From Candidatus Cloacimonadota bacterium (GTDB taxonomy: Bacteria; Cloacimonadota; Cloacimonadia; Cloacimonadales; Cloacimonadaceae): a stretch of 32,656 nucleotides of DNA. Below, piece after piece: positions 2,129 to 32,656 of the stretch (within the stretch, counting starts at the first letter, position 1; each line of letters begins with the position of its first letter). The translations under genes and the position numbers were made by a program. The stretch is from contig JAZHDE010000036.1 of assembly GCA_036584515.1 (NCBI GenBank), positions 1-32,656 of the forward strand, given 5' to 3'. The notes beneath the pieces were generated by a model that was given only the letters and a program-made list of their open reading frames with translations, was not told the DNA's origin and did no database searches.

Positions 2129-4037
2129 TAACCAACCCTCCAGCCTTTCCAGTCAGATTGCTATCTACGTAAACGTATTTATTCTCCTCACCAGCGTTAC
2201 ACTGATTATTGCTACACGCTTGCTTATGACAGGAGTAATGGAAGAAAACGCCAGTATCTTGGTAGATTCCATTACCAACGAAAACATCACACGCACCGAA
2301 GCCAAGCTTTCAAAAGTGGAAAGCATCGGCAGGAATGTACGTTTTCTCTTTCAGAATTCAGTGGGCACCGATGCTCAGAGAATCGATATCATTACCACCC
2401 TGCTCAAAACCGGTTCTGAGATCAGTTCCATCGCTTTGGCTTATGACCCTGCGCTTAAGAAATATCCAGATGCTACGATTTACTACTTGGAGAATGGTAC
2501 TGTTAAAACCACCAAATTGAACCCGGAAGTATATCCATATACAGATTGGTACAATCTTGCCACTAGAACGGGAACCCCGATCTGGACGGAACCATGGTTT
2601 CAGCGAGACGGACTAAGGCAGATTGTGACCTCACACACCATTTCATTGCAAGAAAATGGCAAGACCGTGGGAGTGTTGCGCTTTGATCTCACCATCAACC
2701 GCTTACGGGAAATGATCAAGGTGGATAATCTCAAGAATAATGCCCGACTCTTCATGATCTCCAAAGCAGGCTCGTTTGTAGTTCATACAGACGATTCCCT
2801 ATCTATGAACTACAGCATCTTTGCTTTGGCAGAGGAGTACAACGATCCCATCCTGAGGGAGACCGGACAGCGCATGCTGAGGGGAGAGCGGGGATTCATC
2901 AAGTTAGAAGAGAATAGCCCCCTCCAAAACTACTGGCTGGCTTATGCTCCTTTGCGTTCCAATGATTGGGCTATTGGTGTGTTGCTTCCGGAGAAAGAGA
3001 TATTCAAAACTCTTAACAGCATAACTCTGATTCAGGCTCTGACTTCAATCTTTGCTTTTGTCTGCTTGGCACTGATCGTTTACTTCAAGATCAGGAGAAT
3101 AAACAAACCTTTGAAAGAATTGGTTCAAGCTGCAGAAGAACTGGGTGCTGGGAATTTTGACGTTCAAGCTCCGGAGGCCCACGACTATGCTGAGATCTTG
3201 CAGCTCTCGCATTCTTTTAACTCCATGAAGGAATCCCTGCGGGATTACATCCGCAATCTCTCTGTGACCACAGCAGAGAAAAATAAGATCCAGACAGAAG
3301 TGGGTTTCGCTTCCACAATCCAGAAAAACCTGATCCCACCCAATCGCGATCATGGTCTTTTCCATAATTCCATCAAAGCCTACGGCGTTCTCAACCCTGC
3401 CGGGGATATTGGTGGAGACCTTTATGACTATTTCCTCATTGATGATAGTACATTCTGCTTTGCCATTGCCGATGTAACTGGGAAGGGTATTGTAGCCTCC
3501 ATGACAATGACCATGGTGAGTACTTTTATAAGGGCCAAAGCTTCATATCACAAAGGACCTGGCAGCTTGATGAAGGATATGAACGAATATCTTTGTGCAA
3601 ACAATATTGCCGAGAACTTTGTGACCATTATTGTTGGTTATCTGGATCTTCACTCAGGTAAGCTTCTCTATGCCAATGCAGGTCATGTTCCTTGGTTTAT
3701 CAGGAAAAAGGACTGCAGCTACCTCAAGCAGGGTGATACGCAATCCACAGCCCTGGGCTTCATGCCAAACCTCAAGATTACTGATGCCGAGTTGAGCCTG
3801 GATTTGGGGGACGAGATAATCCTCTTCACAGATGGCATCACTGAAGCCATGAGTACAAATGAGAACTTCTTTGGGATAGAAAGGCTGGAAGAGATCGTGA
3901 AGGACCTGCAGAACCCCAATCCGGAAACTACTGCCAAAGCCATCCTGACTGCTACCCAGAAATTTTCAAACCCAGATCAGCAGTACGACGATATCACCCT
4001 GCTGGTGATCGAGTTTGTGCATCCTATCCTAGTCTGA
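2118..4037 (+). CDS. Membrane sensor serine phosphatase: TM - Cache-like periplasmic domain - TM - HAMP - PP2C/SpoIIE domain
   Basis: 639-aa ORF with two hydrophobic segments flanking a ~270-aa extracytoplasmic region. HAMP-like RRINKPLKELVQAAEELGAGNF. SpoIIE/PP2C motifs GGDLYDY, DVTGKG, TDGITEA. Confidence 0.85.
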   Translation: MPNSNQPSSLSSQIAIYVNVFILLTSVTLIIATRLLMTGVMEENASILVDSITNENITRTEAKLSKVESIGRNVRFLFQNSVGTDAQRIDIITTLLKTGSEISSIALAYDPALKKYPDATIYYLENGTVKTTKLNPEVYPYTDWYNLATRTGTPIWTEPWFQRDGLRQIVTSHTISLQENGKTVGVLRFDLTINRLREMIKVDNLKNNARLFMISKAGSFVVHTDDSLSMNYSIFALAEEYNDPILRETGQRMLRGERGFIKLEENSPLQNYWLAYAPLRSNDWAIGVLLPEKEIFKTLNSITLIQALTSIFAFVCLALIVYFKIRRINKPLKELVQAAEELGAGNFDVQAPEAHDYAEILQLSHSFNSMKESLRDYIRNLSVTTAEKNKIQTEVGFASTIQKNLIPPNRDHGLFHNSIKAYGVLNPAGDIGGDLYDYFLIDDSTFCFAIADVTGKGIVASMTMTMVSTFIRAKASYHKGPGSLMKDMNEYLCANNIAENFVTIIVGYLDLHSGKLLYANAGHVPWFIRKKDCSYLKQGDTQSTALGFMPNLKITDAELSLDLGDEIILFTDGITEAMSTNENFFGIERLEEIVKDLQNPNPETTAKAILTATQKFSNPDQQYDDITLLVIEFVHPILV

Positions 4038-4173
4038 AGCCTAGTCACTACGACAGCATACCTACTCTGGCCATATGCTGGGTAGAGCTCTCCAAATCCG
4101 CTGAGCTAAACAAGTACTGAGGCAAGCACTAACCCAATAAGTTTTCCAGAATAACGGCACTATCTTGTCAATT

Positions 4174-4290
4174 CCTCCCTGCTTCACTTCTTTAGCGATG
4201 CATTAGTGAATCATTAGCGATCCTTTAGCAAAAGCCAAGGAAACGTATATTCTGCAGTAACTTAGGGTATTATTGTTTAATAAGGGAGCA
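4174..4290 (+). repeat. Dispersed intergenic element, copy A (11-nt phased TTAGCGA array plus hairpin)
   Basis: CCTCCC at 4174-4179. Repeat cores at 4192, 4203, 4214 and 4225 (TTAGCGA, TTAGTGA, TTAGCGA, TTAGCAA). Hairpin 4225-4238, AAGGAAAC 4237-4244, AGGGAG 4283-4288. Colinear with copies B, C and D. Confidence 0.85.
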
Positions 4291-4454
4291 GAAAGAGCAG
4301 TCGGACAGTGGCTTAGAGGATCACTCGAAAAATAAGTTCGGGCAAATTGAAAAAATATCCCAAAAGCGTCCCAATTTTCCCCAAACTGTCCCTCTATATA
4401 TGGTAGAGGGTCTTTCATTTGTGAGACCCGGAAAAAAACTAACAGGAGAGAGAA

Positions 4455-4901
4455 ATGAAAGTACGATTTCAATATGGGATGCCTGCACTGTCAGGCAAAG
4501 CTGGAGATCTAACCTTCTGTCTGCATAAGAGCAGCGGAAGAGTCTTTGCCCGGAGAAACAGATATCCTCACATGAGTGACAACCATCACAAAATCGGCAG
4601 CACAACCGCCAATCTGCATCGATTGAAGCCAAGCGTGGCATACAAGAATGATCTGCGTAGATATCTCATGGAATACCAGAGATCACGCTTTGTAAAACGC
4701 CGGCCGGCAGCAAATTGGGTGAATCTCTTTCTAAGCTTGATGTATGAGATGGCGCAGAAGATACCTGGGCTGGATCTCAGAACAATAAGCAGGACGGAAA
4801 TATACGAGCAGAATCTACCATGTATATCTGTGATGAGAGCTGTGGAAGCAGGATTGCTTCCACCATTGGGAGATTGGGAGAGTCTGATATCTGAGCTCTG
4901 A
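4455..4901 (+). CDS. Hypothetical basic protein (148 aa), no family recognised
   Basis: ATG ORF preceded by the purine-rich SD-like AACAGGAGAGAGAA. No motif I can assign. Confidence 0.55.
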   Translation: MKVRFQYGMPALSGKAGDLTFCLHKSSGRVFARRNRYPHMSDNHHKIGSTTANLHRLKPSVAYKNDLRRYLMEYQRSRFVKRRPAANWVNLFLSLMYEMAQKIPGLDLRTISRTEIYEQNLPCISVMRAVEAGLLPPLGDWESLISEL

Positions 4902-4906
4902 AGGCT

Positions 4907-5446
4907 CTATCTTTTGCTGATTGCTCCGGTGGGACAACCCTGGAAATCCTCTCCGTTTCCATTCTCACAGATACCACAGGAGATGCATTTATCCTTGTCG
5001 ATTACTGCCTTGCCATCTTGCATGGTGATGGCACCCACCGGGCAATTGGGAACGCAAAGCTGGCAACCGATACACTTTTCCGGATCAACCCGGTAGGCTT
5101 GAGAGGATTCTTCAGCCTGGCTTTGGCGGGTTGGAGCAGTCTCGGTTTTCACTGTAGTGGGTGCTGGGTCTGATGGAGTAGGCACCGGAACCCTGATGCT
5201 GTCGGAGAGGGGAACCACTACTTTGGCTTCAGGGGCTTTGGGGATTAGGACACCGTCCACACAACGTCGGCAGCCGATGCACTTGGTGGAATCTACTACT
5301 GCTTTGCCATTTACCATCTTAATAGCGTTGACCGGGCAAACTGGTTCATGCTCTTTGGGAAGTAGAATCCCGGTGTGAATCAATATCTGCACGGCAGCCA
5401 GACCGAGCAGCGCCAGGATCAGAAGGATCTGGAGAAAGTATTTCAT
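4907..5446 (-). CDS. Membrane-anchored multi-cluster 4Fe-4S ferredoxin
   Basis: Start chosen at the internal Met ([19 protein letters not shown]...), giving an ATGA overlap with the upstream gene's stop. CxxCxxC and CxxCxxCxxxCP motifs lie on both sides of a Pro/Thr/Ala-rich linker. Confidence 0.8.
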
Positions 5447-6234: not shown

Positions 6235-7070
6235 ATCAAATCAAGGCTCTTCAAAAGCTTTAGCCGGGAGTCTTGATCCAATCTATCTTTGGCAGGATTG
6301 GCAAGGCCGGCGGTTGCTTCGTGGAAGCTGGGTTTATCCACCTGATGATAGATTCCAGTCCAGATCGTATCGGTATCTGATGCCAGTCCGATAGCTTCCA
6401 TCATATTGGCAGGTTGGTTTTGCAATTCTTTGATACGTTGGTTATAATAGCTGTATGTGTTGTTGTAACTTACGCAGGGTTGCAAGACTTCGATGAAGGA
6501 GAAGCCTTTGTGCTGCACAGCTTGATTGATGATGGCGGCCAGTTGTTTGGGATTGGCAGAATAGGCTCTGGCCACAAAGCTGGCACCCGAGATCAAGAGC
6601 AGTGGAATGGCTTGGAAGGGTTCTTCCACGCTACCCTGAGGACTGGAGAGACCTCTGAAACCTAAAGGTGATAAGGGAGAGAACTGACCGGTGGTGAGGC
6701 CATAATTTCCGTTGTTATGTAGAATCAGGGTCATATCCAGGTTACGCTTGGCAGCAAAAAGAGTGTGTTCCAAGCCTTCTCCCAAGCTATCGCCATCTCC
6801 TCCAAAACTCACGACTGTAAGTTCGGGGTTGGCGAGCTTTATGCCTGTGGCGGTGGCTACTGCTCTGCCATGGAGGCCGTATATTCCTGAGATGTTTAGA
6901 TAGTCAAAGATCTTTCCATGGCAGCCAATACCGCAGGTGATGGCGAGCTTTGCAGGACTAAGACCTGATTCAAAGAGCTGATTGAAGGCTAGCTTCACTG
7001 CATTCAGGATGCCAAAGTTTCCGCAGGCGGGGCACCAGGTGTTGGCTTTGCCGGTATCAAGATTACGCAT
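6231..7070 (-). CDS. 2-oxoacid:ferredoxin oxidoreductase, beta (TPP-binding) subunit
   Basis: Start taken at the internal Met (MRNLDTGKANTWCPACGNFG), which overlaps the alpha stop by 8 nt (ATGCGTAA). WCPACG Cys motif and the GGDGDSLGEG TPP/Mg motif are present. Confidence 0.9.
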   Translation of the reverse strand: MRNLDTGKANTWCPACGNFGILNAVKLAFNQLFESGLSPAKLAITCGIGCHGKIFDYLNISGIYGLHGRAVATATGIKLANPELTVVSFGGDGDSLGEGLEHTLFAAKRNLDMTLILHNNGNYGLTTGQFSPLSPLGFRGLSSPQGSVEEPFQAIPLLLISGASFVARAYSANPKQLAAIINQAVQHKGFSFIEVLQPCVSYNNTYSYYNQRIKELQNQPANMMEAIGLASDTDTIWTGIYHQVDKPSFHEATAGLANPAKDRLDQDSRLKLLKSLDLI

Positions 7071-8715
7071 TGTCCACCTCCTTGATTCTATCTGCCAGTT
7101 CAATAGGATCCCAAGCTCTGCCGTCGTAGCGCAGGATGTCGGCTCTGCTGGTGAGTCCCAGCTTTTCTTTGAGGAACTGGGCAAAACGGGGCTTGGAATT
7201 GTGTTCGATTACTATTGCCGGCTCAGTGCAATAGGGGAGAAGCTGCTCTATGGGCAAGGGTTCCAGATAGATGGGCACCACAAGTTGATAATCGCCATCC
7301 AGATACTTCAGTGCTTCACGCACTTCAAGGGCTGTGGAGCCATAGGCAAAGATACGTTTGTTCCCTTCTCCATAAATGGCATAAGCTTGGTACTTACTGC
7401 AGGCTGCAGTAACGGGCTTTCTTTGCCGCTTATCCTTCATAGCGACTATGGCTTCAGCTTGATCAGTGCGCAAACCGCTTTCCAAATGCTCATGCGAGTT
7501 CCACTTAATCACTTCTTCTGAAGGGGGGAAGAGCATGGGAGAGATGCCATCTTCTGTGAATTGGTATCTCTTGTAACCTTCTGTTACTTGCGGAGAAAGG
7601 GGATTTGCTTGAGGTATCTGGTTTGTGGGCAGAGTAATATCCTGCATGGATTCGGAAAGATGCTTCTCAGTGAGCAGGATGGTGGGGATCTGAAGCTCCC
7701 AGGCCAGAGCCAGCAGCTCTCCAGCCAGGCTGAAAGCACGCTCAATACAGTCTGGACTGGCAACTATCCGGTCAAACTCGCCATGTCCCTGATGCAGGGC
7801 AAAATAGAGGTCTTCCTGAGCAGTGTAGGTGGAGACACCTGTGGCAGGACCTGGACGGGAAGAGAGAATACAGAGTAAAGGTGCTTCGGTAATCCCTGCC
7901 ATAGAAAAGGCTTCTTGCATCAGAGCGAATCCACCGCCACTGCTGCCGATGGCAGCTCTGGCTCCGCCCACTACTGCACCAACAGCCATATTGGCTGCAG
8001 CCAGCTCGCTTTCGGCGTGGATAGCCTTAACGCCCAGCTTGGCAGACATGGAAGCAAGGTAGTGCAAAATTGATGAAGCAGGGGTCATGGGATAGGCAAA
8101 ATACATATCCAGGCCTGTCAGCCAGGCTCCCAGAGATATTGCTTGGTTTCCTGTGAAAAGCTTGCTTGGTTCTCTGCTTACAAGCGAGGCCGGAAGTGAT
8201 GTCTGTGGCTGAACCAAAGGGAAGCATTTATCCGCAAAGATGAGGTTCTCTTCAATCTGTTTTTTGTAGCTCCTTTTGATCAGAGAGTGCATCTCTTCCT
8301 GATTCAATCCCAGATGAGCAAAAAAGATGGCAAGTCCGGCAAGACTGAGGTTTGCTGGATTCTGATAGGATTCCTTCATCAGGGAAGTGAGTGGAAGTCC
8401 TATACCTATATCATTAACAGCCTCATCTCTGTTGTAATAGATATTGCCTCCGACTTTCAGTTCGGGGAGATGCTTTGTATAGCTCAGTTGATCCAGACAG
8501 ATGATTAGGTCTGCATATTTGTATGCATTATGGATGGGATCTTCTGAAATGGATACTGTGCTGAAGTTGTGTCCGCCCTTGATCAGGCTCTGATAGTCGT
8601 CACTCTGAAAACAGTGTAAGCCGTGTTCCAGAGCTGTCTTGGCGATGAGCTGGGCAAGCTTTTTAACGCCTTCACCAGCCTTTCCGCCCACTATTACTGT
8701 AAATATGTTTTTCAA
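7063..8715 (-). CDS. 2-oxoacid:ferredoxin oxidoreductase, fused gamma-alpha subunit
   Basis: 550 aa with a TTG start preceded by GGAG. The N-terminal gamma-like VIVGGKAGEGV is followed by an alpha domain with FAYPMTPASS. Substrate is not assignable from sequence. Confidence 0.9.
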   Translation of the reverse strand: MKNIFTVIVGGKAGEGVKKLAQLIAKTALEHGLHCFQSDDYQSLIKGGHNFSTVSISEDPIHNAYKYADLIICLDQLSYTKHLPELKVGGNIYYNRDEAVNDIGIGLPLTSLMKESYQNPANLSLAGLAIFFAHLGLNQEEMHSLIKRSYKKQIEENLIFADKCFPLVQPQTSLPASLVSREPSKLFTGNQAISLGAWLTGLDMYFAYPMTPASSILHYLASMSAKLGVKAIHAESELAAANMAVGAVVGGARAAIGSSGGGFALMQEAFSMAGITEAPLLCILSSRPGPATGVSTYTAQEDLYFALHQGHGEFDRIVASPDCIERAFSLAGELLALAWELQIPTILLTEKHLSESMQDITLPTNQIPQANPLSPQVTEGYKRYQFTEDGISPMLFPPSEEVIKWNSHEHLESGLRTDQAEAIVAMKDKRQRKPVTAACSKYQAYAIYGEGNKRIFAYGSTALEVREALKYLDGDYQLVVPIYLEPLPIEQLLPYCTEPAIVIEHNSKPRFAQFLKEKLGLTSRADILRYDGRAWDPIELADRIKEVDNA

Positions 8716-8782: not shown

Positions 8783-10585
8783 TTAGTATCTGAGGTTAAC
8801 GTTTAGATTCAAGCGCCAATCTAGCTCATCCAAGAGCTCTCCGATGGGGTTCAAGGAAAGTTCCAGACTGGAGTCATCATCAAAGCTGAAAGCTGCCAGA
8901 AACACTGCGCTGTATTCCTTCCAGGTTCCCCAACTGATGCGGGGCTGAATCAGGTAGTAAAAGGAGCCGATGTCCTGCCTCAGGCTAAGGCCGGCAGTGA
9001 ATCTTTCAGTGAGAGAATTTATGATGTATTGAGTCTCTTCCTGGTATCCATACTCGCTTCTTTCATAGAGCAGCAATCCATCCAGCAGGAAGGCGTTGTC
9101 GTCTCCTGAGCGGTATGGAAGCTCCAACCAACGGTTGTCACCGGAGCGGGCAATGAAGGGGAAACTGTCAAAGATCAGGTTGTAACGTGCTGTGAACTGA
9201 CGGTAGAGCTCATTGTTCTGATCCTCAATCTGGTACATGTAATCGGTGTAATCTACTCTGATCTGGTAGTTCTGTTTGAGAATGATGCTGTCACCAATCA
9301 ACAGGCTGATCTCGGGCAAGAAACTGAGGCTCTGTACTTTAGTATTGTTACCTGAAAGCAGACTGTCGATATAGACATCGTCTCTCAGACTCCACAATAA
9401 ACGATTGGATAAGCGTAATCTACTCTTGTAGTAGTGCTTCGAGCCCAACCTAAGACTGATGTTCCGCAGGTCGTTATCCAAGCGGTGATCGTCTTTGGGA
9501 TAGCTGGTTCTTTGCAGGTCGATGCTGCTACCAAAGCTGAGAGTATCCCCCGGAGAGTATTCCCAAAGCAGGTTTGATCCCAGATTACGTAGCTCGGTAT
9601 GGCGGTTGGAGTTTGAAAAGGAGAAGTCCTTGATGGCAAAATTGTGCCCCAGAATAGTTTGCCAGGATAGCTGAGGCAGGGGGCTGTAGTTTACTGCAAC
9701 AGAGGCTTGATTGATGAAGTCTGCGTTGTTCCTGCTTAGATTTTGTTCCAGCCTGGTTTTACGCTGACTGAAGTTGTTTCCGATGTTTAGCTCAACATCC
9801 TGGGTTGGGTAGATGTTTAGCCTGGTATCTGAGATTAGAGACCATCTTTTCTGCTTGTCGGTTTCTACGTAGCTGCTAGGTAATCCCGGGTCGTCGTTTT
9901 GCTCCAAGTTGTAGAGGATATCTCTTCGGCTATCAAGGCTGAACGAAGCAGCCAGCTCAGTTCCCCAGAGATCTTGATTTGCATAGGCATTCAAACCGTA
10001 GCTTTCATAGTGTTCCCAATCCAGATTGAGATAGTCCCCTCTTCCGCTCAGGCCGTAGAATCCTGTAGTGGAGTAATAGGAGAACGAGCTTTGTCCGGTT
10101 ATCTGCTGGCCTTCACCCTTCAGGTTGGTCTCGGGCAGGAATCTGTCTTGTTCGGTCTTGAGGAATGTCTTTGCATTGATACTGAGGAAAAGACTATCCA
10201 GGGGATTGAGTTGTAGCCCATAGCCCAAAAAGCCCATTCTGCTCTGATAAGCAGATAGAGCTGTTTCCAGATCGTTTTTATCATAGTGATAGTTGAAACC
10301 GCTTAGTAAGGAGTGCGTGAGGATTCCACGTTCATAACCTAAATCAAACTCCATATCTGCTAGACGGGTATTTTGATTAAAGTTCAGGCGGGTTTCATTC
10401 TGGGTGCTGCCTTCCAGCTTGATAGTAGTGTATTTTAGGGGACTGAGATTGTAACTAAGCCGATTCTCTATTATGCGGATGCTGCTGTTATTATAAAGAT
10501 ACAGGTCCAGAGCGCTGTTCTGAGCGCTAAGGCCTGTACATAATAGCAGAAAGAAGCTCGCAAAGATCGATAAATTCAGCTTCAC
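8783..10585 (-). CDS. Secreted, predicted outer-membrane beta-barrel-like protein, unknown family
   Basis: The long ORF is tracked to 10633 (TTG). A GTG at 10585 gives a canonical signal peptide, MKLNLSIFASFFLLLCTGLSAQ. Asn/Ser/Tyr/Leu-rich alternating pattern with a C-terminal ...NVNLRY. Either start overlaps the rsmA 3' end. Confidence 0.6.
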   Translation of the reverse strand: MKLNLSIFASFFLLLCTGLSAQNSALDLYLYNNSSIRIIENRLSYNLSPLKYTTIKLEGSTQNETRLNFNQNTRLADMEFDLGYERGILTHSLLSGFNYHYDKNDLETALSAYQSRMGFLGYGLQLNPLDSLFLSINAKTFLKTEQDRFLPETNLKGEGQQITGQSSFSYYSTTGFYGLSGRGDYLNLDWEHYESYGLNAYANQDLWGTELAASFSLDSRRDILYNLEQNDDPGLPSSYVETDKQKRWSLISDTRLNIYPTQDVELNIGNNFSQRKTRLEQNLSRNNADFINQASVAVNYSPLPQLSWQTILGHNFAIKDFSFSNSNRHTELRNLGSNLLWEYSPGDTLSFGSSIDLQRTSYPKDDHRLDNDLRNISLRLGSKHYYKSRLRLSNRLLWSLRDDVYIDSLLSGNNTKVQSLSFLPEISLLIGDSIILKQNYQIRVDYTDYMYQIEDQNNELYRQFTARYNLIFDSFPFIARSGDNRWLELPYRSGDDNAFLLDGLLLYERSEYGYQEETQYIINSLTERFTAGLSLRQDIGSFYYLIQPRISWGTWKEYSAVFLAAFSFDDDSSLELSLNPIGELLDELDWRLNLNVNLRY

Positions 10586-11321: not shown

Positions 11322-11330
11322 TTAGTTAGA

Positions 11331-11385
11331 ATAAAAAAAGATCCGGGATTATCTTGGCTATACAAAGCGTTACTGATCCCAGATC
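11331..11385 (-). terminator. Intrinsic terminator downstream of the 58-aa ORF
   Basis: Minus-strand GATCTGGGAT ... ATCCCGGATC (10 bp, one G-U that pairs only on the minus strand), followed by TTTTTTTAT. The loop is long (26 nt). Confidence 0.5.
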
Positions 11386-11395
11386 TAGTATATTG

Positions 11396-11572
11396 TTAGG
11401 CGCTTAATCTACTGGCTGCAGTTTTCTTGCAGACTTTGCAGACCTTAACGGTCTTATCGGCCACTTTGACTTCGTGCAACAGCTTAACGCCGGTACGTTT
11501 GCAAACGGGGCACTCGCCTCTACCATGGTTTGGCAAGGTGTTCAAGCCTTTTCCGCGATGGTTCTTTGCCAT
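11396..11572 (-). CDS. Small basic CxxC...CxxC zinc-ribbon protein (58 aa), absent from the ORF track
   Basis: ATG preceded by AAGGAG at a 6-nt spacing. Translation: MAKNHRGKGLNTLPNHGRGECPVCKRTGVKLLHEVKVADKTVKVCKVCKKTAASRLSA. A terminator follows. Confidence 0.6.
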   Translation of the reverse strand: MAKNHRGKGLNTLPNHGRGECPVCKRTGVKLLHEVKVADKTVKVCKVCKKTAASRLSA

Positions 11573-11712
11573 TTCTATCTCCTTAGAATATAATCTTCTT
11601 GCTAATTGAACCAGATTTTGAGCTATAGTGATTCAGTCAATACATATTTTCTCGGGAGACTTCGCAAAGCTACCAGGGATTGATCTCTCAAGCTTCCACA
11701 ATCCGAAAAGGC

Positions 11713-11741
11713 TTGACGAAAAAGAGCCTCCATTTTTCATG
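11713..11741 (+). promoter_or_regulatory. Promoter-like TTGACG-N7-GCCTCC-ATTTTT upstream of the tRNA-Pro/tRNA-Val pair
   Basis: TTGACG 11713-11718 and GCCTCC 11726-11731, followed by an A/T-rich tract, about 10 nt before the tRNA 5' end. The -10 assignment is ambiguous. Confidence 0.35.
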
Positions 11742-11750
11742 GCGAAACTG

Positions 11751-11828
<78 letters not shown>

Positions 11829-11844
11829 GTAAATAAAAGACAGT

Positions 11845-11920
11845 GGGTGATTAGCTCAGCTGGAAGAGCTCTTGCTTTACACGCAAGAGGTCGGGGGTTC
11901 AAGTCCCTCATCACCCACCA
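11845..11920 (+). tRNA. tRNA-Val (anticodon UAC), CCA encoded
   Basis: Acceptor GGGTGAT/ATCACCC, anticodon stem CTTGC/GCAAG with loop TTTACAC, T arm GGGGG-TTCAAGT-CCCTC. Confidence 0.95.
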
Positions 11921-11949
11921 TCCCCTTAAATAGATCGAGGCGGTGGTCA

Positions 11950-12918
11950 ATGAAGATAGCAATCACCGGAGCTAACGGCTTTGTGGGTTCCGGCCTCATA
12001 AGACAGTTCCAATCCTCAGGTCATCAAGTGACCGCGGTTATTCGTAAAAATTCGGATACTTCAATAATCCCTGATTGCAAGATGATCAGGCTGGATTACA
12101 ATAATAGTAAAGAACTCCTTGAAGCTTTGGCGGATGTTGATGTGTTGATCCACAATGCCGGCATGACCAAAGCCTTGAACTATGCTCAGATCTACAGGGC
12201 AAACGTTCAACTCACCCGAGATATCCTCGGTGCCAGCCAATCAGCTCCAAGCCTCAAGCAATTTATCTTCATCTCATCTCAAGCAGCTTCACGTCCTTCC
12301 CATGGTAAAGAAACCATCAGTGAAGAAGACCCTTCAGCTCCAGTCACTTGGTATGGAAAAAGCAAGCTGAGAGCCGAGCGCGTAGTGAAGGAAACCAGTC
12401 CCGTTCCCTTCACGATCATTCGCCCCTGCTCAATCTACGGCCCCGGAGACAAGGATTTCCTGCAGCTTGCCAAACTCGCAGCCAAAGGACTCAACCTGAA
12501 ACTAGGCACCAGAACCCGTTATCTTAACATGATCCACGTAAATGAACTCGCCAACCTGCTGGAACTATGCTTGCTGAACGACAAAGCTTTCAATCAAACC
12601 TTCTTTGCCTCAGACGGCGAAGTTTACACGCAAGACACCATACCCTCTCTCATGGCAAAAGCATTGAAAGTTAAGAAGCTTGATCTGGTTGTTCCAGAAA
12701 GTTTGGCCGGGTTAGCTGCCTGGGGAGGAGAGCTTTGGGGGCAGATGAGTAGACGCCCGGTGGTTCTCAATCGCGAGAAGATCAAAGAATTCATGGCCGA
12801 AAGCTGGCTCTGCAGCATAGATAAAGCCCGCAATCTTCTGGGCTATAACCCCCAGCCAAACTTAGAAAAGTGCATCAAGGAGACCATTCAATGGTACAAA
12901 GAAGCATCCTGGCTCTAA
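11950..12918 (+). CDS. NAD-dependent epimerase/dehydratase family (SDR) protein
   Basis: Start moved to MKIAITGANGFVGSGL (Rossmann GxxGxxG), because the tracked TTG start lies inside tRNA-Val. Catalytic YGKSK motif present. Confidence 0.85.
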   Translation: MKIAITGANGFVGSGLIRQFQSSGHQVTAVIRKNSDTSIIPDCKMIRLDYNNSKELLEALADVDVLIHNAGMTKALNYAQIYRANVQLTRDILGASQSAPSLKQFIFISSQAASRPSHGKETISEEDPSAPVTWYGKSKLRAERVVKETSPVPFTIIRPCSIYGPGDKDFLQLAKLAAKGLNLKLGTRTRYLNMIHVNELANLLELCLLNDKAFNQTFFASDGEVYTQDTIPSLMAKALKVKKLDLVVPESLAGLAAWGGELWGQMSRRPVVLNREKIKEFMAESWLCSIDKARNLLGYNPQPNLEKCIKETIQWYKEASWL

Positions 12919-14654: not shown

Positions 14655-15086
14655 ATGATGGAAGAAGAAAGAACGGAAGTCTCTACCGGAAAGCGCTATA
14701 AGCCAGTCTTTATTGCTCTGGGACTATTGATCCTGCTTATCCTGATCGTACCCAATATAAAAAAGCAAGTTGATTTGGAACAAGTGGTTAAAGAGCGCTA
14801 TGGGGTTACTTTGAGTAGCCCGGAGTGGCATGGATTGGACTATGTGATCGAATTGATTCAGATAGTAGAAGTCCGGGAGGGAAGTTGTGCCGAGCGGATG
14901 GGTTTCATGCAGGGAGACCTTATCTTTGCGCCATATGCCAATGATTTGCCAGCCTTTCTGGCTTACCTGAATCAGGAAGAAGGTACAGCACTGAGAGTCA
15001 GCATCGTTCGGGAAGCAGACTTCATGCCCGGAAAAGACTTCAGAGATACCAACCAAGCTTTACCGCTAGTCTTCAGTGCTCCCTGA
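14655..15086 (+). CDS. Small membrane-anchored protein with a possible PDZ-like fold
   Basis: 143 aa. N-terminal TM segment (PVFIALGLLILLILIV). EGSCAERMGFMQGDLI resembles a PDZ carboxylate-binding region, but this is weak. Confidence 0.5.
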   Translation: MMEEERTEVSTGKRYKPVFIALGLLILLILIVPNIKKQVDLEQVVKERYGVTLSSPEWHGLDYVIELIQIVEVREGSCAERMGFMQGDLIFAPYANDLPAFLAYLNQEEGTALRVSIVREADFMPGKDFRDTNQALPLVFSAP

Positions 15087-15142
15087 TCCACGTCGCTTCT
15101 TTCGGCAAACAATCCCCTCTTCAAACATGGTCCTTCCCAATC

Positions 15143-15259
15143 CCTCACCAAGAGGATTCTTTAGCTATTCATTAACGATTCTTTAGCGATTCATTAGCGA
15201 AAGCTAAGGAAACGATAATCCTGCAATTAGTTAGAGCAATGCCATCATATCTGGGAGAA
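15143..15259 (+). repeat. Dispersed intergenic element, copy B (closest to consensus)
   Basis: Cores at 15161, 15172, 15183 and 15194 (TTAGCTA, TTAACGA, TTAGCGA, TTAGCGA). Hairpin TTAGC-GAAA-GCTAA 15194-15207, AAGGAAAC 15206-15213, TGGGAG 15252-15257. Confidence 0.9.
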
Positions 15260-15350
15260 ACAAGTAACCCCTCGAACTCACACTAGCTCAATCTGGATCA
15301 ACAATTCTAAGCAAGTAGTCAAGATAACATTGAAATAATTAAGATAGAGC

Positions 15351-15378
15351 TTGACATAATTAAGGTGCCTCCTATTTT
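15351..15378 (+). promoter_or_regulatory. Sigma70-like promoter of the DUF2089/DUF4097 operon
   Basis: TTGACA (15351-15356), 16-nt spacer ending in GCCTCC, then TATTTT (15373-15378). Confidence 0.5.
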
Positions 15379-17255: not shown

Positions 17256-17333
17256 CGGGATGTAGCGCAGTCCGGTTAGCGCGCTCGGTTCGGGACCGAG
17301 AAGTCGCTGGTTCGAATCCAGTCATCCCGACCA
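17256..17333 (+). tRNA. tRNA-Pro (anticodon CGG), CCA encoded
   Basis: Acceptor CGGGATG/CATCCCG, anticodon stem CTCGG/CCGAG with loop TTCGGGA, T arm GCTGG-TTCGAAT-CCAGT. Confidence 0.95.
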
Positions 17334-22406: not shown

Positions 22407-22441
22407 TAGAACCTCCTAATAAGGATTTGGATTTTACAGAT

Positions 22442-22469
22442 AATATAGGTGTCACGGCTGCTTTTGCAA
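22442..22469 (-). promoter_or_regulatory. Sigma70-like promoter of the cupin/M42 operon
   Basis: Minus strand: TTGCAA (22469-22464), 16-nt spacer, TATATT (22447-22442), about 41 nt before the ATG. Confidence 0.45.
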
Positions 22470-22575
22470 GGTTCGAGTCACGATGTTCACAGGTTGGACC
22501 TCGACTCCAGCCAGGTTGTCCCAATCACCGTTGAGACTGCATTAAAAACCGTAAGTGTCTAGGTATCATTCGAAT

Positions 22576-22692
22576 TGCTCCCCTATTTAGTGGATTATCT
22601 ATAACTTGCTATAGGATAAGAGTTTCCTTAGCTTTCACTAAAGAATCGCTAAGGGATCGCTAAGGAATTGCTAAAGGATTGAATTAGGGACA
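22576..22692 (-). repeat. Dispersed intergenic element, copy C
   Basis: On the plus strand, TCACTAA, TCGCTAA, TCGCTAA and TTGCTAA start at 22635, 22646, 22657 and 22668. Hairpin 22628-22641, GTTTCCTT 22622-22629, CTCCCC 22578-22583. Confidence 0.9.
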
Positions 22693-22766
22693 AACAGGCT
22701 CGAGATGTGGTGGAAGGGTGGGGAGCTGGAGTATGGGCTGTCCAATCTCTACCCAGAACCCAGTGA

Positions 22767-25640
22767 TCAGGAACCTGTTTTTTCTTCAGTCTTGTTGAGC
22801 AGTTCGGTCAAGCTTTGCAGCTCTTCCCGGACCAGCTTTTGGCCTTTCTCGTCGCCCAGATAGATCCGGAGTTCCAGAATCCTTTGGAAGCAGGTAATGG
22901 CCTCTGGGTAAACTTCTTTGTGCTTGGCGATATTACCCAGATTACCCAAAGCTTTGATCAGCTCCAGTTTATCGTTCATGGCCTCAGCCAGCTCAAGTTT
23001 CTTTTTGAGATAGGGTATGGCTTCTTCGTTTCTGGATTGTTTGATAAAAATGTAGCCCAGATTGCCCAAGGCGATGGATTCTTCCTTCATGAGGCGATTG
23101 GTCTGAGCGATGTTCAGGCTCTCAATCATGGCTTGTTCGGCTGCAGCATAATCACCTTCTTCCAGATTGATCAATCCCAAGTTGGAGAGTGCCTTGGCTT
23201 GTCTCTGAGCATCTGAGAGCTCTGCTGCCAGTTCCAGTCCGGTTCTTTGCAGCTCTTTGGCTTTGGCATTATCTTTGGTTTGGAAGTACCAATTTCCCAA
23301 GTTGCCGCTGGCAATGCAGAGTAAACGTTTATCGTTGAGCTCCACGGCTATTTCGTGTGAACTACTGAGTTCTTTGAAGGCAGCATCGATATCACCCTTG
23401 TAGAAGGCTGCAATCCCCAGAAAGCGATGTGCTTCAAAGGCAAGCTCGCGACAGTATGAAGAGACGCAAGTCTGAAGGATGGCTTCCACTTCGGGTATGG
23501 AATCCTTCCAGTTACCTGTCATCCACTGAATCTCAGCAATGCGGAATCTGGTTTCCAGCCGTCTTTGCATCTCGTTCGTTGGAAGGATTGCCAGTATCTG
23601 CCCATAGAGTTGCAGGGCTTGTTTATTGTTGTATATCTTACTGGCGTAATCTGCGGCTTTCTGCAGGTAGAAGAGGGCTTTATCACGCACATCTGCCTTG
23701 GAATAATGCTCTGCCAGAGTGAAGATAAACTCATCGATCCGATCAGCAAAGATTTCTTCGATGGCTTCACCGGTGAGCTGATGGAGCATCTTACGGTTTT
23801 CTACCAAGAGAGTTTGATATGCCACTTCGCGAGTAGTGATATGCTTGAAATAATAGCTTTGGAACTCGAAATCCAGCATTCTTAGAATGATGGCCTGATC
23901 CTCCAGTTCGGAGAGAGTGGCATCAATATCCAGTGGGTCACGTAGACGATTTTCTACTCGGCGGAGGATCTCCACAAAGAACTCGTTGCCTATCACCGCA
24001 GCCTTATAGAGTAGCATACGAAGCGGAACGGAAAGCTTATCCAATCTTGTAAGGATCAAGGTGTGGAGGTTGACCGGAACGGGGAAATCCTTGAGCTGGT
24101 CTTTGGGAAGTTCGTCGATGTAGTTACACCATTCCTCCAGGAAGAAGGGATTACCTTCGGAGAGACGGATCACAGTCTCAAGGTTCTCTGGGCTGAGGTT
24201 AAGTTCTCCGGTGAACTCTCTGATCAGGTCTTCAATGTGTTGACGTGATAGTGGCAAGAGACTGATTTCGTGGTGATCCACCAGCAGGCTGATGAAGGCA
24301 GGAACGGTGTAATCCGGCCTATGCATCAGAATGAGCAAGAGCTTGTTGAGGCGGGCATCACGAGAGATGGTGTTTAGCAAGTTTTCCAGCACCTTGGAGG
24401 ATGCTTCATCTATCCAGTGCAGATCATCCAAGATCAGAACCATAGTGTGATCGGGAGTGGACTTGAGCTTGATATATTCCACCATAAAGCTTTCTATGGA
24501 GCGGGACAGATGGCTCAGGAGGTCTGGCCCGGTCTGCTTCAGACGGTCGTCCTGATAGCGTATATCCAGAAGGTAGCCAACGAGGGGTCTAACGTCATCG
24601 AGAGCGTCTTTGTCCTTGTTTGGCGAGGAATCCAGGAGCTTGGCGTAGGCTTCTTCAAACTTCTTCAGCTTGGTCTGGTTAGGCTCATTTATACTTATTC
24701 TAAAGAGGTTTTCAAACATGCTGCTGAAGAGATTGAGGGGAGAGGGGATAACCGCGCTGCAAGCGCCGTGAAGCACGTTGATATCATCTGCGTGAGCGGA
24801 TTCAAATTCATAGATCAGCCTGGTCTTGCCTAAGCCAGCTTCGCCTTTGACGGAAACGCAGATGGCTCTCTCGCTATGCTCGGTTTGAGCTTTCTTTAGG
24901 AGGGATTCCAGCTTGGCTTGTTCCTCTTCTCTGCCTACATAACGGATCTTCTGGTTTCTTCTGTGCAGGGAAGCGTCCAGCTTGGGACCTTTTACGACCC
25001 AGGACTCTATGGGTTCGGAGAAGCCTTTGACCGTGACAGGACCCACATAGTCAAACTCGAAGATTCTCTCCACAAGCTTTTTGGTGGATTGTGGCATCAT
25101 GATCTCATTGACGGGGGCATTGGATTCCATGCGGGAGGCAAGATTGACTTCCGGGCCATAGACTGTAAATTCATCTCCTCTGTCCTGACCGATCTTGCCA
25201 ACGCTCACCAAACCGCTGTTGATACCTATCCGGAGCCCCAGGCTCAGGTTTTCAAAGCCAGGTTGGCGGGACAGCAGAGTGTTATAGAGCTGCAATTGCT
25301 GTTGCATCTTGATAGCAGCGTGGATGGAGCGTTCAGTATCCTGCTCGCTGGCTTTCTTGGCTCCAAAGAGAGCCATGATGCCATCACCCATATACTTATC
25401 CACCACACCGCCGTAGAAGACGATGCAGCGGGTAAAAATCTTCATGATTTCGTCCATCTTCTTGTGGATGGTTTCGGCATCAAAAAGGTTGGAGATGCTG
25501 CTGAAGCCCTTTATATCTGCAAACAAAACTGCGACTTCGCGAAGCTCTCCTTCGCGGAGCTCAAGTTTTTGAGCGCTCTGTTCTTCCTCCACATCCAGAG
25601 AAAAGAAATCTGCACCAAAGACAAAGTCATTATCAATCAT
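22767..25640 (-). CDS. Class III adenylate/guanylate cyclase - P-loop NTPase (STAND-like) - TPR multidomain protein
   Basis: 957 aa. Cyclase motifs FADIKGFS, KYMGDGIMALFG, YGPEVNLASRME. Walker A GEAGLGKT, Walker B LILDDLHWID. C-terminal TPR-like repeats. Confidence 0.88.
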   Translation of the reverse strand: MIDNDFVFGADFFSLDVEEEQSAQKLELREGELREVAVLFADIKGFSSISNLFDAETIHKKMDEIMKIFTRCIVFYGGVVDKYMGDGIMALFGAKKASEQDTERSIHAAIKMQQQLQLYNTLLSRQPGFENLSLGLRIGINSGLVSVGKIGQDRGDEFTVYGPEVNLASRMESNAPVNEIMMPQSTKKLVERIFEFDYVGPVTVKGFSEPIESWVVKGPKLDASLHRRNQKIRYVGREEEQAKLESLLKKAQTEHSERAICVSVKGEAGLGKTRLIYEFESAHADDINVLHGACSAVIPSPLNLFSSMFENLFRISINEPNQTKLKKFEEAYAKLLDSSPNKDKDALDDVRPLVGYLLDIRYQDDRLKQTGPDLLSHLSRSIESFMVEYIKLKSTPDHTMVLILDDLHWIDEASSKVLENLLNTISRDARLNKLLLILMHRPDYTVPAFISLLVDHHEISLLPLSRQHIEDLIREFTGELNLSPENLETVIRLSEGNPFFLEEWCNYIDELPKDQLKDFPVPVNLHTLILTRLDKLSVPLRMLLYKAAVIGNEFFVEILRRVENRLRDPLDIDATLSELEDQAIILRMLDFEFQSYYFKHITTREVAYQTLLVENRKMLHQLTGEAIEEIFADRIDEFIFTLAEHYSKADVRDKALFYLQKAADYASKIYNNKQALQLYGQILAILPTNEMQRRLETRFRIAEIQWMTGNWKDSIPEVEAILQTCVSSYCRELAFEAHRFLGIAAFYKGDIDAAFKELSSSHEIAVELNDKRLLCIASGNLGNWYFQTKDNAKAKELQRTGLELAAELSDAQRQAKALSNLGLINLEEGDYAAAEQAMIESLNIAQTNRLMKEESIALGNLGYIFIKQSRNEEAIPYLKKKLELAEAMNDKLELIKALGNLGNIAKHKEVYPEAITCFQRILELRIYLGDEKGQKLVREELQSLTELLNKTEEKTGS

Positions 25641-32024: not shown

Positions 32025-32040
32025 CCCATTTATTAAGCTA

Positions 32041-32077
32041 AGAGCAGGTGACCGCAAGGAGCCTGCTCTTTCTTTTT
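32041..32077 (+). terminator. Intrinsic terminator of the HU gene
   Basis: AGAGCAGG / CCTGCTCT 8-bp stem (32041-32048 / 32062-32069), followed by TTCTTTTTG. Confidence 0.8.
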
Positions 32078-32114
32078 GCTTATGATATTATCCCACAATT
32101 GCTTACTATCCAAT

Positions 32115-32231
32115 CTCTTCCTTATTCGGTTTTATTGATGTAAATTACAATAGGATAAGCGATTCATTAGCTTTCGCTAAAGGATCGTTAAAGCATCGCT
32201 AAGGAATAACTAATGAATCCTCTGGGGGAGG
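32115..32231 (-). repeat. Dispersed intergenic element, copy D (inverted relative to flanking genes, next to dnaN)
   Basis: On the plus strand, TCGCTAA, TCGTTAA, TCGCTAA and TAACTAA start at 32174, 32185, 32196 and 32207. Hairpin 32167-32180. AATGAATC replaces AAGGAAAC, and GGAAG replaces GGGAG. Confidence 0.85.
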
Positions 32232-32313
32232 AGAAGGAGGAAAGTTGTTGACTAAAAATCGTCGTTTCGATTTGCTGATTCTAAAGAAAAAATACGTTTC
32301 AATGGGGTGAAAG

Positions 32314-32656
32314 ATGAGATTATCAATAGATAAGAAGGATTTGAACCAACATATCCAACACTTGGCTTCAATCGTGCCCAGCAAAGCCACCAATCCAATT
32401 CTCACTAATTATCATATAGTTGCCAGCACAGAGACGAACAACATTCAAATCACGGCTACAGACCTGAACATCACCGTGATTGTGAGTTTCCCTGCTTCGA
32501 TCAGTGAGGGTGGAACAATTGCAGTTTCGGCAAGGCACTTCAATGAAATTATTGCAAGCATGCCGGACGATGTATTGCAACTTTGGACCAATGAAGACTT
32601 GCTTCTGATTCAATGTGGGAAGATCGATTTCAAGCTATTGTGTGCAGATCATTCTC
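32314..32656 (+). CDS. dnaN: DNA polymerase III beta sliding clamp, N-terminal part (3' end outside the window; not in the ORF track because there is no stop)
   Basis: Translation MRLSIDKKDLNQHIQHLASIVPSKATNPILTNYHIVASTETNNIQITATDLNITV...ARHFNEIIASMPDD matches the conserved DnaN N-terminal domain pattern. The frame is open to the window end. Confidence 0.9.
   Translation, partial: MRLSIDKKDLNQHIQHLASIVPSKATNPILTNYHIVASTETNNIQITATDLNITVIVSFPASISEGGTIAVSARHFNEIIASMPDDVLQLWTNEDLLLIQCGKIDFKLLCADHS

Follow-up and report, generated by a model that had tools for sequence, protein, structure and literature searches.

Four copies (A to D) of a palindromic repeat, each lying between genes and each carrying an array of 11-nucleotide (nt) units as its left arm, were recognised in a 32,656-nt stretch of DNA from a Candidatus Cloacimonadota bacterium (NCBI GenBank assembly GCA_036584515.1, contig JAZHDE010000036.1, positions 1 to 32,656; hereafter the window). 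The account we favour, with slightly less than even confidence, is that these copies belong to a palindromic intergenic repeat of the ERIC/BOX/REP kind that is probably recognised as DNA by a protein acting in trans. Membership in that class of repeat, taken by itself, is held more firmly than this joint statement, and the binding mechanism, taken by itself, less firmly. As far as the tests reach, the element is neither a promoter operator nor a structured RNA gene. In what follows, W is the species of the window, and its copies were counted within the window only; J is a sister metagenome-assembled genome (MAG), JAEZUG01; species K is GCA_029567705.1; and L-numbers denote fetched loci or contigs.

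Copy A (4163-4299, + strand; nhmmer E-value 9e-37, ungapped alignment) lies between a gene for a SpoIIE/HAMP phosphatase and an open reading frame (ORF) of 148 amino acids (aa). Copy B, the reference copy (15132-15268, +; 2e-39), lies between a 143-aa ORF and a DUF2089 gene, copy C (22567-22703, −; 3e-39) between an adenylate-cyclase/AAA/TPR gene and a cupin gene, and copy D (32106-32242, −; 3e-37) between the apparent terminator of the HU gene and the dnaN promoter, antisense to both of these flanking genes. A first reading of the window made from its letters alone (the sequence-only reading) had described four stretches without insertions or deletions, and once oriented alike the copies do align without a gap over the whole element, while a profile built from them recovers each one. 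Our recount agreed with its hand count of 13 differences over 66 positions between B and C and with its observation that TTAR is kept in all 16 units, and each copy does place stop codons in all six frames. Three phased TTAGCGA units (at up to three mismatches) occurred nine times in the window, always inside copies A to D, against an expectation of 0.00 from 100 shuffles. The further statement that each of the four longest intergenic gaps carries exactly one copy requires that the 58-aa TP_0214-like ORF (11396-11572) be a gene; otherwise the gap at 11322-11750 is the longest and carries none. This ORF had no Pfam match; relatives have a TP_0214-family gene annotated in the syntenic position. 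No substantial repeat other than the present one and two tRNA-Pro paralogues was seen in the window.

Pairwise identity among 25 copies placed the conserved block between about -50 and +86, counted from the start of unit 3, i.e., ~135 nt, and the element of ~117 nt first described is thus real but somewhat too narrow. Identity peaked at 0.90-0.94 over units 3-4, the inverted pair that they lead into, and AAGGAA. The whole element is one imperfect dyad of ~116 nt, in which column i of our alignment A2 stands opposite column 157-i up to the loop; 58% of cells pair in this register, against 30-43% after a shift of the partner by one to three columns. The left arm of copy B (15161-15200, +) comprises the units TTAGCTA, TTAACGA, TTAGCGA and TTAGCGA, each followed by a 4-nt spacer, and the corresponding arrays lie at 4192-4231 (+) in A, 22635-22674 (−) in C and 32174-32213 (−) in D. 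The dyad centre (15192-15209, + in copy B) reads CATTAGC-GAAA-GCTAAGG, the family consensus being CCTTAGC-GAAA-GCTAAGG. Across this central pair of heptads 97% of cells are paired, and four of the seven pairs are invariant across 26 copies, which leaves covariation unmeasurable there. The right arm (15210-15246, + in copy B) mirrors the left-arm units in degenerate form, keeping their 11-nt register, and has conserved words of its own, CTTATCCT and TAAGTTA; both belong to a block, AAGGAAA-nn-CTTATCCT-nnnn-TAAGTTA, that starts at 15206 in copy B and is conserved in W, J and species K.

At its two ends the dyad has a C/T-rich box on the 5' side (15143-15154, + in copy B; family consensus GCTCYCTCATTC) and a G/A-rich box on the 3' side (15247-15258, +; family consensus GAATGAGGGAGC). 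The two consensus boxes are complementary over 12 nt, and 65% of their cells pair, as they do in shuffles. The long-range CCTCCC/GGGAG stem that had been proposed from the sequence alone is therefore sound in its complementarity, but it is simply the outer end of the whole-element dyad and pairs no better than shuffled sequences. Four units per copy, likewise, is right for the window, but the number varies in the wider family, with three units in L095 and in the species K copies; orthologous copies differ by 11-nt insertions or deletions. Some 90 nt beyond the 11-nt array are also conserved.

One genome per prokaryotic species was scanned with a degenerate core pattern and then with the profile, which yielded at least 23 further copies, all of them in J, with one taken per 8-kb block fetched. 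This is a lower bound, since several J copies sit at contig ends and short-read J contigs break inside the element. About 80 other loci that matched the pattern, including one in a second Cloacimonadales genome (L071), were chance matches, none scoring with the profile beyond the pattern itself. A scan of metagenomes added only two contigs with copies, both from the J species, and there was no match in viral contigs, in 72,556 plasmids or in phages; an origin from a phage or plasmid was discarded on that account. A literature search returned nothing relevant to the repeat. The sequence-only reading had suggested a search for further copies in related genomes, and they were found in J and in species K. 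W is a sister species of J, as judged by 82-86% DNA identity over syntenic stretches, and species K is 77-81% identical to W with synteny kept. The family is lineage-specific, confined to a few related Cloacimonadota species. With regard to density, the window holds four copies in 32.6 kb (at 4.2, 15.2, 22.6 and 32.2 kb), a fifth lies 8.5 kb past copy D in J (L063), and by a rough count the window's density is ~6 times or more that of long J contigs, which have about one pattern-matching copy per 50-100 kb. This suggests that copies are locally clustered near dnaN-recF, an enrichment that is uncertain since the J counts are lower bounds.

The family has been retained vertically at the same loci in three species. 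Copy B has orthologues in J (L060; 83% identical over the element and 86% over columns 15-142) and in species K (L119), copy C in J (L108, L110 and L112) and in species K (L119), and copy D in J (L082) and in a K-like contig (L124); an orthologue of copy A was not retrieved from J or species K. Between W and J, the element at locus B is 83% identical versus 63-71% for the adjacent non-promoter intergenic DNA, and at locus C 74% versus 32-40%; at locus D the centre has been retained and the outer boxes have drifted. The orthologues of B, and likewise those of C, share private variants. Mean identity among paralogues is 0.70, about equal to that of the C and D orthologues, and B alone clusters clearly with its orthologue (0.86). 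Paralogues being about as alike as orthologues, the variable positions must be saturated and the remaining ones held, which is not the pattern of a recent burst. The constraint acts on the sequence and not on base pairing, and the flanking intergenic DNA has diverged to saturation.

The 11-nt units come in dialects. At loci B, C and D, W and J carry TTAGCGA units, versus TTAACCY in species K, whose left arm has three units with the core CCTTAACC(C/T) and a CTCA loop, and whose right-arm block, AGGAAA..CTTAT.CT....TAAGTTA, has been retained. At locus C the J strain L126, 98% identical to J, has TTAACCT units where other J contigs have TTAGCGA, and its left flank differs from theirs, although the gene adjoining the locus is 97-99% identical. 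All dialects share CCTTARC, the complement of the 3' arm GYTAAGG. Two of three species K copies have the 3' arm GTTTAGG, in which, relative to W and J, one pair is restored (A-T for G-C) and another is broken. Within an array the four spacer or loop bases change together, and because they do so the GAAA is best regarded as the fourth spacer of the W/J dialect and not as a conserved GNRA tetraloop; the sequence-only reading had singled it out as a GNRA-type loop, but it is not a deep feature, as relatives carry CTCA or CTTG there. The internal 11-nt units, in short, turn over in concert. The gap orthologous to copy B in a distant relative (L143, 9740-9830; GCA_964433815.1) holds no member of the family and has instead an array of five CCCGGG-N5 units followed by a GGGGAG box. 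Seen only once, this 11-nt-phased array may represent the same kind of element in a third dialect, or may be coincidental.

One alternative is a structured RNA element, i.e., a multi-copy small RNA or a hairpin in the untranslated regions of mRNAs that would serve as a 3'-end stabiliser, as an RNase target or, through its 11-nt UUAGCGA repeats, as a protein sponge. Such a role is improbable on the evidence gathered, although it has points in its favour: the central 7-bp hairpin and its GAAA loop hardly vary in W and J, the GGAA of one J contig is still a GNRA loop, and some copies fold better than shuffles, with z-scores down to -3.0. As a palindrome folds either way round, mixed orientation is also compatible with a role in mRNA. 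Searches of Rfam 15 at E<=1 with the window and five loci with copies, however, returned only tRNAs and one sub-threshold chance match over a tRNA, and the earlier statement that this is not a described RNA holds for that release. RNAalifold found only the 7-bp central hairpin, devoid of compensatory change, and the outer stem, a local second hairpin and the full dyad all had a paired fraction and covariation no higher than in shuffles. In an all-against-all covariation G-test with average product correction, the best column pair scored 16.6, against null maxima of 13-26. The 5' and 3' boxes form a duplex of -15.7 kcal/mol with their partner in the same copy and of -15.1 kcal/mol with that of another copy, and mismatches of the G.T type (130) are in no excess over A.C (126), so neither strand's RNA is favoured. 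The minimum-energy folds of single copies disagree among copies (z -0.2 to -3.0), and relatives have CTCA or CTTG as the loop. No conservation was seen upstream of about -50, hence no conserved promoter, and a terminator-like site follows only four of 27 copies, at variable distance, with six of the 27 lying behind the terminator of the upstream gene. The structured RNA that had been a candidate of the sequence-only reading is accordingly not supported. Two lesser candidates were set aside: a terminator, as the central hairpin has no T-run and few copies precede a terminator, and a small ORF after the GGGAG box, as its start and frame are not conserved and identity is at background past +86.

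Geometry brings to mind a different kind of element. The direct repeats of 7-nt cores with 4-nt spacers in 11-bp phase, three or four to an array, have the geometry known from Pho boxes and ArcA sites, and from this likeness the element might be taken for an operator array of an OmpR/PhoB-type response regulator that controls the adjacent genes as a regulon. Genomic context largely refutes this, and we consider it very improbable, more so than a role as RNA. Genes in the J loci were predicted with a codon-usage caller trained on the long ORFs of these loci, and part of the predictions were checked against Pfam. The copies proved strictly intergenic, seven in tandem gene pairs in sense orientation, six in tandem pairs in antisense, six between convergent genes, e.g., between SecDF and APH in L087, and two between divergent genes. 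Their neighbours have no common function, comprising SecDF, a phosphotransferase, a class I W/Y-type tRNA synthetase, an amylase, a sigma factor, TilS, a Mur ligase, HU, dnaN and others. A fixed placement at the -35 region within a coherent regulon was thus not found, given the convergent and antisense copies and the unrelated genes. The genes downstream of B and C, moreover, have their own sigma-70-type promoters, which lie 60-100 nt past the element and are kept in all three species (W, J and K), and ~90 nt outside the array are conserved too. The sequence-only proposal of a phased operator or iteron array therefore stands only in a weaker form: constrained heptads in 11-bp phase fit a protein-binding array, but the copies are not operators of promoters. 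A plasmid iteron or ParR-parC centromere was rejected as well, there being dozens of chromosomal copies beside housekeeping genes and no match among the 72,556 plasmids.

The two promoters just mentioned are TTGACA-16-TATTTT before the DUF2089 gene (15351-15378, +) and TTGCAA-17-TATATT before the cupin gene (~22425-22460, −), and from their conservation in three species it follows that the lineage uses classical -35/-10 promoters. Several attempts to find a promoter or a directional role in the element itself came to nothing. Near B, the one sigma-70-like site is the promoter that belongs to the downstream gene; candidates within the element, sought by eye, matched at best three of the six bases of the -35 hexamer; and motifs of sigma-54-like and Bacteroidota type, also sought by eye, were dropped because the columns are not conserved. 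A link to the direction of replication was dismissed too, as GC skew has one sign across the window and copy orientation switches (+ + − −).

A more serious alternative, though still an unlikely one, is that the family is a selfish, non-autonomous mobile element akin to miniature inverted-repeat transposable elements (MITEs) or REPINs, which would have spread in an ancestor shared by W, J and K, have no host function, and keep its copies alike by ectopic gene conversion with occasional replacement rather than by selection. Much about the copies suits this: their terminal boxes are complementary, the whole element is a dyad and similarity among copies is star-like; they are strictly intergenic, with fewer in divergent than in convergent gene pairs (2 versus 6); in one J strain, with 97-99% identity in the flanking genes, copy C has had its left half replaced; and short-read and MAG contigs break inside the element. 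Signs of transposition were sought and not seen. Terminal inverted repeats of the kind that MITEs possess are present (GCTCYCTCATTC/GAATGAGGGAGC), yet conservation is graded and maximal at the centre rather than at the ends. Target-site duplications were not evident, the longest word shared by the flanks averaging 4.73 nt within a copy versus 4.65 nt between copies, and old insertions could have lost theirs. W, J and species K all have the element at loci B, C and D, so none of these offered an empty site; more distant relatives that have no element at these genes lack synteny as well, which is why no clean empty site was seen. The ~35 flanking genes that were checked included no transposase, and none lies beside any copy. 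Lastly, the orthologues of B and of C, with their private variants, are far better kept than their flanks. As to the REP- or MITE-like repeat of the sequence-only reading, the class survived (dispersed, intergenic, palindromic, multi-copy), but such hallmarks of a MITE as duplications and empty sites were not found, nor was a parent insertion sequence among the flanking genes checked.

Many J copies are flanked by other short tandem repeats, which are (TAGGGAY)n on the 3' side and (CCACCACG)5, (CCACGTCA)n or CACTTCAC-like on the 5' side (L099 ~1600-1640, L065 ~7340-7400 and ~7510-7560, L067 ~1060-1100, L107 ~985-1030, L035 ~4925-4964, L046 ~925-985 and L126 ~9420-9470), and because of these the family looks mosaic, in the manner of BIMEs. 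A second small repeat, the hairpin CTGCCAAA-CTCCG-ATTTGGCAG, adjoins two different J copies (L020 ~4255-4285; L028 ~2860-2880 and ~3085-3110). Contigs that end inside the element include L109 (1-60), L111 (1-60), L126 (both ends), L130 (1-67) and L124 (1-79), and contigs of the J MAG end within it at L035, L093 and L063; in L107 the left flank belongs to one locus and is joined to a right flank of another type. The repeat, in other words, breaks or mis-joins assemblies of these organisms.

Among described repeats, those of the ERIC and BOX type are the closest in kind. The Cloacimonadota element has what characterises them, being an imperfect palindrome in the range of 100-150 nt that is modular, occurs only between genes and in both orientations, and varies in its number of units. 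ERIC (or IRU) sequences of the Enterobacteriaceae are intergenic imperfect palindromes of ~120-130 nt, present in tens of copies and unusually conserved, with a function that is unsettled. By description, rather than by sequence, the two are alike in palindrome size, strictly intergenic location, copy number, occurrence in either orientation, and conservation; unlike ERIC, the present element has a tandem 11-nt array as its left arm and is confined to a few species. Given the phylum, sequence homology to the ERIC or BOX consensus is not to be expected. BOX elements of Streptococcus pneumoniae (boxA-boxB(n)-boxC) resemble it, again by description, in that two end modules, partly complementary to each other, enclose tandem units of variable number, and in being dispersed between genes. 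They differ in that the internal unit is 45 nt rather than 11 nt, and in the present family the innermost unit forms an inverted pair and there is no sign of recent mobility. Correia elements are of the same broad kind.

REPs and BIMEs, and REPINs with their RAYT transposases, are likewise palindromic intergenic repeats that can persist at orthologous sites, with lineage-specific sequence types that recall the dialects described above. Recognition of REPs and BIMEs takes place at the DNA level, by IHF, gyrase or the RAYT transposase. REPs, however, are 20-40 nt long, have a conserved GTAG head and number in the hundreds, whereas the present element is a dyad of 116 nt with pairing at 58%, has no GTAG head, and has no RAYT or Y1 transposase adjoining the copies examined. 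Pho and ArcA sites and the 11-bp iterons of ParR-parC share with it direct repeats spaced one per helical turn, a geometry suited to protomers bound head to tail; those sites lie at promoters or partition genes, whereas here the array is part of a 135-nt repeat found in any non-promoter intergenic DNA.

We infer that the palindromic repeat is probably recognised as DNA by a protein acting in trans, because its heptads stand in helical phase and end in an inverted pair, because both strands are treated equally, and because the core is kept through the dialects. The constraint would then act on double-stranded DNA, and the heptads, at a spacing of one helical turn and with the inverted pair at their end, could seat several protomers of a DNA-binding protein with sequence specificity. 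The binder might belong to the architectural or nucleoid proteins or be a domesticated transposase, comparable to IHF and gyrase on BIMEs or RAYT on REPs, and the dialects may reflect turnover of the array by 11-nt slippage together with exchange between copies, within the limits set by the binding factor.

Several points weigh against this account. Neither a transposase nor a candidate factor lies beside any copy in ~250 kb of loci. Exchange between copies, to which the change of dialect in one J strain testifies, could maintain their likeness with less selection than we suppose. The conservation of units 3-4 is partly inflated, as the J copies were fetched with a pattern that covers those columns; the C orthologue (reached by synteny, via the cupin gene) and the species K copies (also by synteny) are free of that bias, and unspecified spacer columns and adjoining columns outside the retrieval pattern are conserved as well. 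Gene calls in the J loci are home-made and only partly checked against Pfam, and 26 similar sequences give limited power to detect covariation.

Some other features of the window deserve mention. The stretch at 32314-32655 (+) encodes the N-terminus of the DNA polymerase III beta subunit (dnaN), with recF next to it in the sister species (L082, 4165-6427), and as the region encodes dnaN, the ORF listed on the opposite strand (32368-32613, −) is a spurious antisense one. A block beside copy D that is 87% conserved corresponds to the dnaN promoter, leader and first codons, and copy D itself abuts a candidate -35 hexamer of dnaN, TTGACT, picked out by eye. Between the HU stop codon and copy D is a hairpin, AAGAGCAGG...CCTGCTCTT (32040-32070), conserved in J and in K-like contigs, which reads as the HU terminator, with its T-run on the + strand and facing copy D. 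DnaA-box-like 9-mers (TTATCCACA, at most one mismatch) number 17 in the window versus 7.15 +/- 2.5 in shuffles, none of 100 shuffles reaching 17; none of these sites (e.g., 2720-2728, 6334-6342 and 25396-25404) is perfect, all are scattered within genes, and they do not cluster upstream of dnaN. The stretches 11751-11920 and 17256-17333 hold tRNA-Pro(TGG), tRNA-Val(TAC) and tRNA-Pro(CGG), the two tRNA-Pro genes being 82% identical to each other. As the ORF listed at 11872-12918 begins inside tRNA-Val, the epimerase gene must start downstream of the listed position. Neither the 148-aa ORF beside copy A (4455-4901, +) nor the 143-aa ORF beside copy B (14655-15086, +) had a Pfam match; the latter is 87% identical in J, is present in species K and is absent from the syntenic place in L143.

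Dispersed intergenic repeats of small size are common in well-studied bacteria and, to our knowledge, barely described in uncultured phyla such as the Cloacimonadota. Within a known kind of repeat, the phased 11-nt array and its dialects are the unusual traits, and on present evidence no new class of RNA or regulation is opened by them. The dialects of W/J and K at loci B, C and D, the switch within a J strain at locus C, and the CCCGGG-N5 array of L143 allow a bolder and speculative reading, rather improbable as matters stand, in which the element would be a genome-wide recognition site of a clade-specific trans-acting factor whose 11-nt units are rewritten in concert across loci. If that were true, it would imply either a protein and its sites co-evolving over dozens of chromosomal positions, or an active homogenisation of short tandem arrays by templating or conversion. 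As sequence-level constraint is seen at orthologous sites, the family is more than junk. A repeat that breaks assemblies is of practical use to those who assemble the genomes of these organisms; beyond that, the family is a tractable bait for a clade-specific DNA-binding factor, and its dialects at fixed loci are a natural experiment on the concerted evolution of dispersed short tandem arrays.

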